From IMG/VR virus record IMGVR_UViG_3300042898_000421: DNA of 64,000 bases. One strand, 5' to 3'. Shown here one piece after another: positions 43,858 to 55,907 of this stretch. The notes beneath the pieces were generated by a model that was not told the origin of the DNA, searched no databases, and saw only the letters and a list, made by a program, of their open reading frames with translations. Every line of letters begins with the position of its first letter. Positions within the stretch are counted from its first letter, which is position 1. The position numbers and the translations under genes are program-made. The stretch comes from a virus.

Positions 43858-45251
43858 AAACAATACCAATAATTCCCGAAGCTCCGACTAGAGGTAATCC
43901 AATGGATACCATGTGCGAGTTTAAATGGAACTATCCTATATTTCAAATTGACCGAGGCGAATTTAGAAGTTGCTGTCGTACCCCGTCAGTGCCTATCCCC
44001 GAATCACTTCTAGAAGAGAAAGGTATTAATGCATTTCTCAATAACGATCATCTTGTTAGAAGCAGATTAGACCTAATCCAGGGAGTGCGACATTCTGATT
44101 GTCAGAGTTGCTGGAATCTTGAAGATAGAGGCATGAAAAGTCCGAGAGAGCCTGAGAACTTTTGGAATTTTTTAAAAAGAGAACAAGTTATTCCTCGAGA
44201 TATGGAATATACAGAAGAGAATGTTAGAACAGAATTGGGGAAAATTAATTCACTAGACCATCCTTTTCTAAAAGCTAAAACTCCTTATATGATGGAAATT
44301 AGTTTAGGAAATACATGTGATTTAAAATGTATGTATTGTAATCATCATTATTCAACACAGTGGGCAACTGAACTGATCAAGTTAGGAGAACTCACTCAAG
44401 AACAGTATGATAGAGAGTTTCCTAAATCTTCATCTAGTTTTGAAGAAAAGTATTGGGAATGGTTTGACAAGGTAGGCTGCTGGCATATACATCGTGTTAA
44501 TATGATTGGGGGAGAACCACTTATCATTCCTGAATTTTATGAATATGTGGAACGTATGGCAAATCGTATTACTAGAATTATGCCTATCAAGAAGTTAAGA
44601 CCAACTCTGTGTATTGTGACAAACCTCAACACTCCAGCAAATTATTTTAATAGGTTCATTGAAAGACTTCCAAAGATTATTGAAGCATTTGATCTAGAAA
44701 TATTAATTAGTATGGAATCATTAAATGATAGAGCGGAGTATATTCGAAACGGTATTACATGGAATCGATTTAATTCAAATGTAAATAAATTATTATCAAT
44801 TACTACCACTAAATTCCAAGTTGGATTCTTAATGTCAGTTAGTGCATTGAGTATTGCTACAACAAAAGATTTTATTGAATATGCAACTAACTTGTCAGAT
44901 CAATACAGCAGGCCAATAGGACTAAAGCAGAACATTATTAATTTCCCCTCGTGGCAAAATCCAATGATATTACCTCCAGAGTTTTCCAAGTATCTAAGTG
45001 ATACTATTGAATACATGGAGCAACATGTATCGAGGATGCCAAACGTTACTGACTTCTTTGGACGATATGATCAATACATGATATTTTTAAAGAGCTTGAC
45101 AGAAAGTATGAAAAACAATACAGGTGATTACACGGCAGACAGGAAGAAGTTCTATGAATGGTATAATACATTTGATCAACATCGAAATCTCAATCTCCTT
45201 AATACTTTTCCCGAGTATGCAGACTTTTATGAAATGTGTAAAGGATTATAA
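43854..45251 (+). CDS. radical SAM protein with N-terminal twitch domain
   Basis: C...W...SCC...C.SCW.LE.RG..S.R; CDLKCMYC; GGEP; TN. Confidence 0.88.
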   Translation: MKTIPIIPEAPTRGNPMDTMCEFKWNYPIFQIDRGEFRSCCRTPSVPIPESLLEEKGINAFLNNDHLVRSRLDLIQGVRHSDCQSCWNLEDRGMKSPREPENFWNFLKREQVIPRDMEYTEENVRTELGKINSLDHPFLKAKTPYMMEISLGNTCDLKCMYCNHHYSTQWATELIKLGELTQEQYDREFPKSSSSFEEKYWEWFDKVGCWHIHRVNMIGGEPLIIPEFYEYVERMANRITRIMPIKKLRPTLCIVTNLNTPANYFNRFIERLPKIIEAFDLEILISMESLNDRAEYIRNGITWNRFNSNVNKLLSITTTKFQVGFLMSVSALSIATTKDFIEYATNLSDQYSRPIGLKQNIINFPSWQNPMILPPEFSKYLSDTIEYMEQHVSRMPNVTDFFGRYDQYMIFLKSLTESMKNNTGDYTADRKKFYEWYNTFDQHRNLNLLNTFPEYADFYEMCKGL

Positions 45252-46468
45252 TGTCTAGAAAATGTCTTTTTCCTTTTACCAATCTTGTTGTTAATCCTAA
45301 TGGAACCGCAACACCTTGCTGTAAGTATAACATCAATAAAACAGATGAGGATATAGAAAAGCAAACACTCTATGATAAAAACATAAAGGAATTATTCTTT
45401 CAGCCAGCAATGGAAGATATCAGGAAACAATTTAATAACAATATTGAGCCCACAGCGTGCCAAATATGTTGGGACGAAGAAGCAGTGGGAATTACTTCAT
45501 TACGACAACACAGAGATAACATTGCAAAATGGCACAACACTCATAAATCAAAATATATAGGAAGATTTGATGATCCTAAAATTGTTACTATTGATTTTAA
45601 ATTTAGCAGTTTATGCAATCTAAAATGTAGAATCTGCGGACCTTATTGCAGTTCTAAATGGCTTGAAGAATCTCAGGAGACGGGCGAATTTCATGAGCAC
45701 ACTATAAAGATATTTGCAAAGTATGCAGATAGAAAATTTATTGATAATGAAATTAATTTTGAAATATTTAAAGAACTGATCCCAGATCTACACATAATTG
45801 AGTTTTATGGCGGCGAACCCTTAATGCAGCCCGAACATGAAAAAATTATGAATATATTGAGAGAATACCCGCTTGTTGAACGGTATAAGTTTGATCTATT
45901 ATATAATTCCAACGGAACTATATATGATCAAAGTGTAGTAGATACTTGGAAGAAAGTCGGCCTTGTAGAATTCAATATTAGTGTCGATGACATTGGCCCT
46001 AGATTTGAGTATCAGCGGTATCCTGCAAAATGGGATCAAGTATTAGAAAATATATTAAAATATAAGACTAATTGCGGAAACAATGTTAAGATGAATATAT
46101 ATGTTACTGTTAGCCTTTACAATATATTTTACATTGACGAGCTAATCAAGTTTAATGCAGAAAATCTTAAGTTGCCTTTAAGATTTAATCTGTTACATTT
46201 TCCCGACAAAATGTCTATTAAAAATCTTCCGTTGGATATTAAGAATATTATCAAAAGTAAAATAGATATTATTCCAGATGAACACAGGCAATATATTGAC
46301 AAACTATTTGGGATAGATGCGGTTATAAACTTTATGACGAGCACTGAAAAATCGGATGAGGATTATAATGAGTTTATAAAGACAACTCTCCTGCACGATG
46401 ACTATAGAAGCCAGTCGTTTGAAGAAACATTTCTTGAATATTGGATATTATTGAATGAAACCAATTAA
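45251..46468 (+). CDS. radical SAM protein with N-terminal twitch domain
   Basis: CLFPF...PCC...CQICW.EE..G..SLR; CNLKCRIC; GGEP; SNG. Confidence 0.88.
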   Translation: MSRKCLFPFTNLVVNPNGTATPCCKYNINKTDEDIEKQTLYDKNIKELFFQPAMEDIRKQFNNNIEPTACQICWDEEAVGITSLRQHRDNIAKWHNTHKSKYIGRFDDPKIVTIDFKFSSLCNLKCRICGPYCSSKWLEESQETGEFHEHTIKIFAKYADRKFIDNEINFEIFKELIPDLHIIEFYGGEPLMQPEHEKIMNILREYPLVERYKFDLLYNSNGTIYDQSVVDTWKKVGLVEFNISVDDIGPRFEYQRYPAKWDQVLENILKYKTNCGNNVKMNIYVTVSLYNIFYIDELIKFNAENLKLPLRFNLLHFPDKMSIKNLPLDIKNIIKSKIDIIPDEHRQYIDKLFGIDAVINFMTSTEKSDEDYNEFIKTTLLHDDYRSQSFEETFLEYWILLNETN

Positions 46469-49476: not shown

Positions 49477-50520
49477 TCATTTCCTATTGCCAAATAGAAT
49501 ATAATCTTCCTTGGTATACCCTTCCATAACTTCACTACCGCTCCCGCTGTTAGGACTGCTAGTCTTGTTGTCTAGTCCTCCACGAATAGGTACTACAGCC
49601 CAAGTACAGTAATCTGTAAAGTAAGGCAAAGCCTTGAGTTCTTCTTCTAGACTTAATGTTTCTTCGCGATTGTGTGGGGCCATCATAAATTTGATTTCAA
49701 GATGCCCGTTTCCGCCTGCCGTAGCTTTTTCATCTGCAATAGCGGCCACGACTTTGACAAATTTTGCACGATCGTAAAATTCAAAGTGTACACTGAGATT
49801 TAAGTCACCGTAGTGAATGATCTCTCTATAGTATTCTGGTAAACGACTTCCGTTACTGTGTAAGCTAACATGATGCCCCATGGCATTTAGGTAACGTAAC
49901 CAATCTAAGAAATCTTTGTTAACAGTTGGTTCGCCACCACTGATGATAAAATTAACGCTTTCACCTTTGGTAAAGTGTTGTTCGAGATTGTGCGTAGCCT
50001 TCATTAGTTCTTCTAATGATTTATGCGGATCTGTTTTATTATGTATCCATGGCCAGCAATAACTACAATCATAGTTGCATCTACGACTAATTTCCCAATA
50101 GATTTGTTTTTGAGTACTTGCATGGGTACGTTCTACTGCAACAAAGTCTGTTAGTGTATCGTTACGTAATTCCGGAACTGTCGGTAGTCCTTGCCCCCTG
50201 CGTAGTAATGGCTTAAATTCTATCTTCTGAGTCTTGGGAATAAACAGGTCTGCACCACAACTACAAACATTCCTGGTGCAGTTGATCCACGAATCCGGCA
50301 CTCTAAAATCTTCAAACACATTGCCAAGCGGGCCGCCAACTCTACAGCTAGCAGTCCAGACGCCACCGTCCATATCAATAAACAAGCTATCTACACCTGC
50401 CCCGCATTTCCATCCAGAGATATAGTTCAATTTTGCACCCACTAACTCGTCTGTGCTCCAATCTCTCCATTGTCCATTTTCTGCGTATGTTCTAATTGGT
50501 TTTCCGGGCGTCTGGTCCAT
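49477..50520 (-). CDS. radical SAM protein, twitch-like domain N-terminal
   Basis: WKCGAG...SC...CTRNVCSC precedes CNYDCSYC, SGGEP, SNGS. Confidence 0.85.
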   Translation of the reverse strand: MDQTPGKPIRTYAENGQWRDWSTDELVGAKLNYISGWKCGAGVDSLFIDMDGGVWTASCRVGGPLGNVFEDFRVPDSWINCTRNVCSCGADLFIPKTQKIEFKPLLRRGQGLPTVPELRNDTLTDFVAVERTHASTQKQIYWEISRRCNYDCSYCWPWIHNKTDPHKSLEELMKATHNLEQHFTKGESVNFIISGGEPTVNKDFLDWLRYLNAMGHHVSLHSNGSRLPEYYREIIHYGDLNLSVHFEFYDRAKFVKVVAAIADEKATAGGNGHLEIKFMMAPHNREETLSLEEELKALPYFTDYCTWAVVPIRGGLDNKTSSPNSGSGSEVMEGYTKEDYILFGNRK

Positions 50521-50581
50521 TGTTTTTTCCTTGTAGCGTATTTATAATAAGTACTACTATAATGATTAACTATGAGGCCAA

Positions 50582-54215: not shown

Positions 54216-54575
54216 TTACCATTCATCTTGTTGATTGAGTTTGCTAATCGCTTTTTCCAGCAGTTCATCGTGATCTAAATCAGCATAACAGTCATCGAGT
54301 TCGTAGATCTTTTCCTCGTTGTCACTGTTAGTTTCCCATTCTTTGACACCTAACATTTCCATTAATTCTGTAAAAGTTATTTGTTCTCCACGAATTTGGC
54401 TAACCCAAATGCAAGTTAGGAAACTGCACATGAACACAGTCTTTTCGTCGTAGACTCCGTATTCATCACACCATGCCAACGTTCTATCCAAATAATAATC
54501 AATATCGTCGATTCGATGTTCTAATTGATTAATCCACTCTTTTGTATCATCTCGGGACCAAGGTCTTGTTGTCAT
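54216..54575 (-). CDS. acidic hypothetical protein
   Basis: 119-aa ORF with AAGGAAG SD. Confidence 0.7.
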   Translation of the reverse strand: MTTRPWSRDDTKEWINQLEHRIDDIDYYLDRTLAWCDEYGVYDEKTVFMCSFLTCIWVSQIRGEQITFTELMEMLGVKEWETNSDNEEKIYELDDCYADLDHDELLEKAISKLNQQDEW

Positions 54576-54584
54576 AAACTTCCT

Positions 54585-55379
54585 TTATTTTAGCCCCATT
54601 GCTTTTCTGATATTTGTAGCAGAAATAGAATGAGTTTTTTCATCAAATGTTTCTTGTTCTATTTTATAGCCCACCTCTCTACCATAGGTGATGTTAACAA
54701 TGTTCGGAACAATTTGAATCTCGTACTGACCCTGATACAACATATCTAGGTCACGTTTGATAAACCTCGTTACTTGCTCAATGGCAAATGGATTACTTCC
54801 TTGCCAGCCCTGACAGTCACGTATTTGGATAACGACCTGTCCTGTTTTAGCAATAGCTCGCTCAAACAGTTTACGATGTCCTTCGTGCCATGGTTGCCAG
54901 CGACCTAACATTTGTACAGTTTCTTTCTGCCAGTTAAACACTGGTCTACGACGGTTGTCATAAACGTGTGCGGCAATGAACTCGCCCCATTTTTCACCGT
55001 GTTGTTCTGTAATCCTAAAGTCGTATACATCCGGTGGAATGAATGCTTTGTTAGTATCTTCGTAACGACCTTTGTCAATTGTATCAACCCACACAGTCCA
55101 ATCTGCTTTGAAGTTGTCACGCATTTCTACTAGGGGCGCAACAAAGTCGCAGATTACATAATCATACTCTGTCATGCCATCTGCAAGTTCTCGCATACGA
55201 TGACTTTGTCTTATACGACCTTCTGTGCTAAAGTCCCAGTCATTGTATTTTTTACGCACATCGTCGGCATTTAGCCAACCTACTTTTTTCTTTTCGTTTT
55301 GTAAATGTTCTAGTATCCATTGAGCTAAAGTTGTTTTTCCAGCGCCTGGCAACCCCATTACTAATATTCGTGCAGTCAT
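54585..55379 (-). CDS. adenylylsulfate kinase (CysC-like) fused to an HxGH nucleotidyltransferase-like domain
   Basis: MGLPGAGKTT, NADDVR, DFS.EGR, DFVAP; LGRWQPWHEGH, NPF. TAATG-coupled start at 55379. Confidence 0.85.
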   Translation of the reverse strand: MTARILVMGLPGAGKTTLAQWILEHLQNEKKKVGWLNADDVRKKYNDWDFSTEGRIRQSHRMRELADGMTEYDYVICDFVAPLVEMRDNFKADWTVWVDTIDKGRYEDTNKAFIPPDVYDFRITEQHGEKWGEFIAAHVYDNRRRPVFNWQKETVQMLGRWQPWHEGHRKLFERAIAKTGQVVIQIRDCQGWQGSNPFAIEQVTRFIKRDLDMLYQGQYEIQIVPNIVNITYGREVGYKIEQETFDEKTHSISATNIRKAMGLK

Positions 55380-55543
55380 TAATTGTAACCTCTGCTTTTG
55401 TCTATTTCTACGCACTCTGGACATTCACAGTCCGGGCAGTATTCGCATTCAGTACAACTATGATTGCAGTGTGCAGGACAACCGCACTTGCATTTAGCTG
55501 TAAATCTTTTGTAGTTTTGAAAGTCATCCATGTATTGTTCCAT
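55379..55543 (-). CDS. 54-aa Cys-rich metallothionein-like peptide (not in ORF track)
   Basis: [54 protein letters not shown]; AGGAG SD; ATAAATA upstream. Confidence 0.75.
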
Positions 55544-55583
55544 GTTTTTCTCCTGCTTAGATATTTATAGTGTAAATAGTAGT

Positions 55584-55907
55584 ATGATCAACATAACATT
55601 AAATGCTAAAACAAAGATTACAGACCTCCTAATGGAAGAAAACAATCCAAAACTTGCCCTACGCACCTTTGTACAGGGCGGAGGATGTTCTGGTTTTAGT
55701 TATGGATTCACCTTTGATGAAGAATTTAACGAAGATGATTTTCAGTTCCCAATTGGTGAATTTAAAGTCGTAGTAGATGCTATGAGTATGCAGTACCTAC
55801 AAGGTGCCGAAATTGATTACAAAGAAGATCTTTCCGGATCTAGCTTTTCAATAAAAAATCCAAACGCTCAATCCACTTGCGGTTGCGGCAGTAGCTTCTC
55901 CATTTAA
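55584..55907 (+). CDS. A-type Fe-S carrier (ErpA/IscA/HesB)
   Basis: [33 protein letters not shown]. Confidence 0.93.

Follow-up and report, generated by a model that had tools for sequence, protein, structure and literature searches.

A phage-only family of ten-cysteine mini-proteins with a conserved set of metal-ligand-type residues

What use might a phage have for a protein of 54 residues in which ten cysteines crowd into a single stretch of 27? The question is raised by a gene on the minus strand of a 64,000-nt stretch of viral DNA (IMG/VR record IMGVR_UViG_3300042898_000421; hereafter the window, to whose full length position numbers refer). The gene, here called the ten-cysteine gene, lies at 55379-55543 (54 codons, stop included) and is supported by the open reading frame (ORF) listing, substitution ratios and homologues. 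A preliminary description of the window had proposed that it encodes a metallothionein-like store of metal or sulfur serving four radical S-adenosylmethionine (radical-SAM) enzymes, or else a peptide precursor that these enzymes modify. The ORF itself is exactly as claimed, with ten cysteines and two histidines between C18 and C44 (55412-55492, minus strand). As to its product, comparison of sequences leads us to give about an even chance to an autonomous, metallothionein-like metal-thiolate protein that is not the precursor of a ribosomally synthesized and post-translationally modified peptide (RiPP).

The short length of the ORF, and its lack of database annotation, would fit a chance or untranslated reading frame. 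However, when the gene was compared with nine close relatives free of insertions and deletions, the ratio of nonsynonymous to synonymous substitution rates (dN/dS) was 0.04-0.08, with differences falling mainly in third codon positions; this bias and ratio further imply that the overlapping plus-strand ORF is not the coding frame. A strong Shine-Dalgarno sequence, noticed in the preliminary description, was located as AGGAG at 55550-55554 (minus strand), 6 nt 5' of the ATG, and is kept in relatives that share the gene arrangement. Moreover, 155 distinct homologues were recovered, across which the Cys/His pattern is conserved. These comparative data already refute the chance ORF, an explanation that we consider scarcely credible, and they indicate that 55379-55543 is a genuine gene under purifying selection. 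Within the window it is the only cysteine-dense gene of its kind.

The homologues came from several searches: three proteins at 80-85% identity from a search of 5.8 billion proteins, 20 matching clusters from an exhaustive hidden Markov model (HMM) search of 1.84 billion cluster representatives, 73 proteins from a profile search and 136 loci from scans of viral contigs. They measure 39-106 residues (median 54), and every one of them is encoded in a viral or metagenomic contig. A pattern scan of 185,579 prokaryote species, one genome each, did not find the family, and neither megablast of the locus nor tblastn of the peptide gave a match in 50,697 phage records, in searches whose low-complexity filter may hide cysteine-rich matches. 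Thus, in the collections searched, the family is phage-only. Longer or fused forms were searched for and none was found, and each of five large viral records holds a single copy of the gene. As for known families, Pfam gave none at E<=0.1 for the protein nor at E<=1 for 24 members, PHROGs and NCBIfam gave none for the peptide or the members, and a sequence-profile search of the PDB yielded no match at E<=10; the ESM Atlas returned unnamed clusters only, with scores below 0.85, and Foldseek, run with a low-confidence AlphaFold2 (AF2) model, no match. Full-text searches of the literature on phage metallothioneins and small cysteine-rich cyanophage proteins gave no paper in which a phage metallothionein-like protein or the ten-cysteine family is described. 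The family is undescribed and phage-restricted, and of a known general kind, the metallothionein-like.

Which residues does selection hold in place? The pattern C-x(1,2)-C-x-[C/H]-x2-H-C-x3-C-x(2,4)-C-x(1,2)-C-x-[D/E]-C-x-C-x2-C fits 152 of the 155 homologues. The third ligand position is Cys in 137 of these and His in 15, and of the three sequences that do not fit, one has Asp there; that is, the only variable cysteine of the core gives way to His or Asp, both of them metal-ligand residue types. Every one of the 152 fitting sequences has an acidic residue, Asp or Glu, directly before C39. Alignments therefore define twelve fixed positions of ligand type within a span of about 27 residues, namely the ten cysteines, the invariant His25 and the invariantly acidic position 38 (Asp in the window). 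Other core positions vary, except for a near-invariant Ser29, and the glycines that are common there are not strictly kept. By spacing, the family divides into two subtypes, C-x2-C-x2-C (that of the window's phage) and C-x4-C-x-C. Ahead of the core, the N-terminal 17 residues (55493-55543, minus strand) carry YMDD[FY]xxYKR[FY], which is kept in most members and is predicted to be helical by a low-confidence AF2 model. It is absent from some (e.g., loci L068, L069, L149 and L222), whose proteins start nearly at the first cysteine. The same low-confidence modeling leaves the core unstructured, between an N-terminal helix (residues 4-15) and a C-terminal one.

Taken together, the near-exclusive restriction of invariance to ligand-type residues, the Cys/His/Asp interchange, the lack of a confidently ordered core and the free choice of gene neighborhoods (see below) suggest that the function is the metal centre itself. 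Since no fused forms were found, each record carries one copy and more than 30 gene arrangements occur, the protein appears to be autonomous; that Ser29 alone is near-invariant outside the ligands likewise fits a function centred on a cluster and not a specific protein interface. On this reading, function would reside in the 27-residue core, whose twelve ligands (ten Cys, His25 and Asp/Glu38) would suffice to build about three tetrahedral metal sites or a single polynuclear cluster, with a short predicted helix flanking it on each side. The protein may bind metal ions, Zn or Fe, and buffer them or hand them on, with no single fixed partner, in phages that appear unusually rich in metalloenzymes (radical-SAM enzymes, iron-sulfur (Fe-S) carriers, di-iron ribonucleotide reductase (RNR) and desaturases). 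An AF2 model without an ordered core would accord with a metal-dependent fold.

How close does this bring the protein to metallothioneins, as had been proposed? Like the bacterial SmtA/BmtA proteins (Zn4Cys9His2) and the plant Ec-type, it is small and 18.5% cysteine, with CxC/CxxC runs, some 11 Cys or His ligands and one invariant His amid the cysteines; like them, too, it is not confidently predicted to have an ordered core when free of metal. It also has the low mass, high cysteine content and C-x-C-x-C and C-x2-C repeats by which the class is operationally recognized, but not the scarcity or absence of aromatics. It differs from metallothioneins, too, in its many acidic residues, flanking helices, invariant acidic twelfth position, phage-only distribution and lack of sequence relationship. 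Membership in the SmtA family found no support, as the family model (Pfam Metallothio_Pro) gave no match even at E<=1, whereas the broader likeness, a conserved small Cys/His-rich protein with ligand-like invariants, did. A further lead is offered by the Zn3Cys9 modules (CXC/tesmin, pre-SET) and the C-terminal Fe-S domain of CIAPIN1/Dre2, which are short, largely loop-like, cysteine-dense segments with a CxC start and a CxCxxC end that hold a polynuclear cluster. Dre2, moreover, serves both Fe-S assembly and the di-iron cofactor of RNR, an echo of the neighborhoods of the ten-cysteine gene. The phage protein differs from these in its spacing, gives no HMM or PDB match to them and stands alone instead of forming a domain.

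The preliminary description had also raised the possibility of a RiPP precursor. Such a peptide, whether ranthipeptide, sactipeptide or SCIFF-like, would be modified by a phage radical-SAM/SPASM enzyme. In its favor, the cysteine-rich part is C-terminal, following a 17-residue N-terminal part that had been likened to a leader; SCIFF and ranthipeptide precursors are likewise highly conserved, of about 45-55 residues and cysteine-rich in their C-terminal half. In addition, the four radical-SAM genes of the window were confirmed (40508, 43854, 45251 and, on the minus strand, 49477), the third with a SPASM match. However, the nearest of them ends 4.9 kb from the ten-cysteine gene, with several genes between. 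In none of the more than 30 gene arrangements was a radical-SAM gene seen to adjoin the ten-cysteine gene, whether in the flanks annotated with Pfam (the screen with a radical-SAM model did not extend to the later loci, L090-L163) or by tblastn of the window's radical-SAM proteins in loci L001-L075, where the nearest matches lie 2-7 kb away. Thus, an adjacent maturase was not found; nor was a peptidase or transporter among the annotated neighbors, or a match to a curated precursor model of NCBIfam. In place of a conserved leader and a variable core, the family has an invariant core and a dispensable "leader", the reverse of RiPPs, and its cysteine can be replaced by His or Asp. With the N-terminal part missing from some members, neither its leader role nor the RiPP proposal holds up, and we consider the latter highly improbable. 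Separately, the radical-SAM protein with the SPASM match (45251-46468, plus strand) has an unusual order, its SPASM match (residues 5-74) preceding the radical-SAM core (118-285).

Could the metal be iron, and the partners the Fe-S machinery? The gene's divergent neighbor across a 40-nt spacer (55584-55907, plus strand) encodes, as had been claimed, an ErpA/IscA-like A-type Fe-S carrier (PF01521, E 7e-18); we take it as genomic context and not as an established partner. ErpA adjoins the gene in 19 related loci of the window's clade and in the divergent locus L116, and an ErpA or IscU homologue is present in 23 of 149 fetched loci, always within 1.1 kb of the gene and in four arrangements. In further carriers the gene lies about 20 kb from IscU/ErpA (one record) and 70 kb from an ErpA paralogue (record G002). 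Metal- and redox-related neighbors recur in independent arrangements: ErpA, IscU (L065, L116, L124/127), thioredoxin (Trx)-NrdB, fatty acid (FA) desaturase and heme oxygenase. Among ten large carrier records, at least weak radical-SAM matches were found in nine (the exception being a fragment), several with 10-12, and ErpA and/or IscU in six; these counts cover carriers alone. Fe-S assembly genes (A-type carriers, IscU) and many radical-SAM genes have already been described in T4-like marine phages (PMC5332604), in a paper whose main text nowhere uses the term "cysteine-rich".

Such a context might point to a minimal Fe-S or rubredoxin-like iron redox protein, that is, a phage-specific class acting as electron donor or as cluster or iron shuttle for radical-SAM enzymes, IscU/ErpA, di-iron RNR and desaturases, a viral counterpart of Fdx, YfaE or Dre2. 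At 54 residues the protein is of the size of clostridial ferredoxins and rubredoxins, runs of C-x3-C-x2-C and C-x2-C-x2-C occur in it, as does a group of three Cys and one His (C18/C20/C22/H25), and as many as 12 radical-SAM genes are found in a carrier genome. In cells, radical-SAM enzymes, IscU/ErpA assembly, di-iron NrdB, desaturases and heme oxygenase all belong to ferredoxin-dependent processes. Yet the spacing is unlike CxxCxxCxxxCP, two CxxCG knuckles about 30 residues apart are not found, no ferredoxin or rubredoxin HMM matches, and ten cysteines in 27 residues are denser than in known Fe-S folds. Furthermore, most phage IscU loci and genomes lack the gene, and most of its copies sit in virion operons. 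We therefore hold an iron or Fe-S protein of this sort, whether as donor or as carrier, to be rather doubtful.

Several points weigh against the metal-thiolate protein favored above. First, AF2 gave a predicted local distance difference test (pLDDT) score of 55.5 with 24 sequences and 58.7 with 82, which is unusable, so that there is no reliable structural model. Second, no metallothionein, ferredoxin or rubredoxin model matched, and six aromatics in 54 residues (Y4, F8, Y11, F14, Y35, Y53) are unlike classical metallothioneins. Third, the radical-SAM richness of the carriers is given without comparison to similar phages that lack the gene. Finally, in the reverse direction, the motif occurred within 10 kb in only one of 80 viral IscU loci (930 kb in all). 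Five large viral records with IscU, one of them a complete 374-kb genome, likewise gave no match to the gene in a profile search of the kind that recovered it in five of five known carriers. In a complete 364-kb carrier the gene lies some 110 kb from IscU/ErpA. With more than 30 independent placements in gene-shuffled regions where auxiliary genes cluster, the four Fe-S adjacencies are suggestive yet could be close to chance, and the link to Fe-S assembly is weak.

After these reverse tests, a strong claim that the gene belongs to an Fe-S module was rejected. Co-occurrence with radical-SAM and ErpA genes, which the preliminary description had asked after, is seen from the side of the carriers (radical-SAM matches in nine of ten, ErpA and/or IscU in six) and fails from the side of IscU (1/80 and 0/5). 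With the Fe-S reverse tests negative, a dedicated role for the Fe-S and radical-SAM set is no more than a possibility, and the proposed service to the four radical-SAM enzymes was not borne out. Two side observations concern ErpA itself. Near relatives of the window's phage encode two ErpA-like paralogues, only about 33% identical to each other (G005:C1:48087-48392 and 93441-93743). In the phage with the gp15 arrangement (B) described below, only the second type is present (G002:C1:141978-142283; L079, L080), beside an acyl-carrier-like gene, SleB, p83 and ligase.

When is the protein made? The preliminary description had pointed to a late-type ATAAATA, which we located as TATAAATA at 55562-55569 (minus strand), 18 nt 5' of the ATG. 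This octamer is the T4 late-promoter consensus. In relatives with the window's arrangement the whole 40-nt spacer is conserved, with (T/A)ATAAATA and AGGAG, and ATAAATA-type motifs also lie 5' of the gene in L116, L107, L104, L113 and L068. Across the window TATAAATA is not enriched (5 found, 4.9 expected), so its weight comes from position and conservation in relatives alone. A second of the five copies (50539-50546, minus strand) also lies 18 nt 5' of a start, that of the radical-SAM gene at 50520. Most copies of the ten-cysteine gene are either inside virion-gene operons or 3' of an ATAAATA late-type motif, which makes late expression a reasonable inference; the protein is probably made late in infection. 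In the window's phage, expression would proceed from the gene's own late-type promoter and strong ribosome-binding site, whereas in most relatives translation would take place within virion-gene operons.

To describe these neighborhoods, genes were called around 150 loci and the neighbors clustered, which gave the more than 30 different arrangements mentioned above. With the gene taken as the plus strand, that of the window (A) reads ligase(-), ErpA(-), then divergently the gene(+), p119(+), p83(-) and SleB(-), and is found in exact order in 19 loci and also in the more divergent L116. In another (B, 43 loci; peptide identity 51-85%), gp13(-) is divergent from a virion protein gene, phrog_11591(+), which is followed by the ten-cysteine gene, gp15 and NUDIX, with stop and start codons abutting or overlapping. 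Others run NrdA, phrog_3704, gene, Trx, NrdB and sometimes FA desaturase (C); gene then IscU, stop and start overlapping (D, L065); ErpA(-) divergent from gene, IscU, ErpA and p119 (E, L116); IscU, ErpA, phrog_3704, gene, ErpA, Trx and NrdB (F, L124, a complete 190-kb genome); FA desaturase, gene, PD-(D/E)XK nuclease and heme oxygenase (G, L064); and phrog_1645 virion protein, a 140-residue protein, gene, a 207-residue protein and an SNase-like or Endonuclease_NS nuclease (H). The gene and that of the 207-residue protein form a pair in 34 loci, behind many different upstream genes. Further copies adjoin isocitrate lyase and genes without assignment.

Three of the neighbors deserve mention in their own right. 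The 207-residue protein is highly conserved in the Kyanoviridae-like group (L087:5159-5782, L070:3598-4221); no lead emerged from Pfam, PHROGs, the PDB or the Atlas, and there was one weak match in the Ralstonia jumbo phage RsoM2USA. p119 (54216-54575, minus strand) encodes 119 residues with conserved cysteines and no family assignment, and is the conserved downstream partner in the window's clade (59-78% identity). Of the 11 loci with phrog_3704 (L071:2761-3393 and relatives), 10 have it directly 5' of the ten-cysteine gene; its "ferredoxin" label (PHROGs, RefSeq) looks doubtful and was rejected as support for a redox context, since GenBank cyanophage records call it PurM and it has few cysteines.

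Which phages carry the gene? Among 50,697 deposited phage genomes there is none closely related to that of the window's phage, and the ten-cysteine gene is absent from the nearest record (17 kb). In one contig set the gene adjoins gp13, a sheath protein of ~1,100 residues and gp15, the last ~33% identical to its counterparts in the jumbo phages Phosso, PA5oct and Atu_ph07. With a 151-kb carrier record estimated as 43% complete (CheckV), this contig set looks like jumbo myophages. Their tail-sheath protein measures ~1,115-1,125 residues in relatives (L001:1574-4921, L016:1-2932), and the genome size implied by CheckV completeness is ~350 kb, which points to a lineage of jumbo myophages represented by metagenomes alone. 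The C-x4-C-x-C subtype, for its part, is found mostly in contigs whose neighbor genes best match Kyanoviridae, among them the SNase-like nuclease, "PurM"/phrog_3704 and the phrog_1645 virion protein. The family thus spans two unrelated myophage groups. In the cultured phages Melnitz, C48C1, S-TIM54 and S-SSM5, no homologue was found beside the SNase, IscU or "PurM/phrog_3704" genes.

The frequent virion-gene placement raises another explanation, that the cysteines form a zinc-stabilized knot and the protein is a protein-binding module, which might act in virion assembly, belong to the virion or the neck-tail region as a minor component, or inhibit a host protein late in infection. The 43 loci in which the gene lies between the phrog_11591 virion protein and gp15, the tail-sheath stabilizer, with abutting or overlapping codons, would fit this, as would its position after the phrog_1645 virion protein in the Kyanoviridae-like group and the late-type motif 5' of it elsewhere. 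So would the conserved YMDD[FY]xxYKR[FY] helix and the frequent pairing with the 207-residue protein. In PA5oct, however, a jumbo phage that gp15 similarity (34% identity) marks as a distant relative, a structural gene verified by mass spectrometry is followed directly by gp15, with no ten-cysteine gene between, so the gene is an insert and not a core virion gene there; the Phosso annotation of the same region (not translated) has an endolysin gene just 5' of gp15. In addition, the N-terminal helix is missing from some members, the 207-residue partner is absent from the complete carrier genome G009, and few non-ligand residues are conserved. We regard the zinc-knot module as unlikely on balance, if still a credible alternative.

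Finally, what of the gene on the other side of the ten-cysteine gene? The preliminary description had stressed translational coupling to a CysC fusion, and the overlap of stop and start is indeed present (TAATG, 55377-55381). The gene concerned (54585-55379) matches APS_kinase over its first 90 residues, with a cytidylyltransferase-like motif further on, and PHROG 10255 ("kinase") over its full length. In a blastn comparison with locus L022, identity is 98.7% up to the peptide stop and 93% from the start of p119, with 816 bp between them in the window (54561-55376, minus strand) and 6 bp in L022. The kinase gene has no homologue in loci L001-L075, and the insertion is absent from 20 sampled relatives with the window's arrangement, among them some whose flank is 98.7% identical. 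The coupling is thus a recent, lineage-specific insertion, and a functional tie to CysC is left without support. Of note, in L116 (4617-6208) the same slot of the ligase-ErpA-peptide-p119 frame holds IscU and a second ErpA instead of the kinase, which marks it as a cargo-gene hotspot.

Metal-dependent auxiliary genes are numerous in large aquatic phages and include those for radical-SAM enzymes, Fe-S carriers, RNR and desaturases. Should the ten-cysteine protein prove to bind an Fe-S cluster, it would rank with the smallest known cluster proteins; should it be a Zn knot only, it would be an ordinary small phage protein. As a phage-only, strongly constrained mini-protein with twelve ligand-type positions, it is a candidate for viral metal handling during infection.

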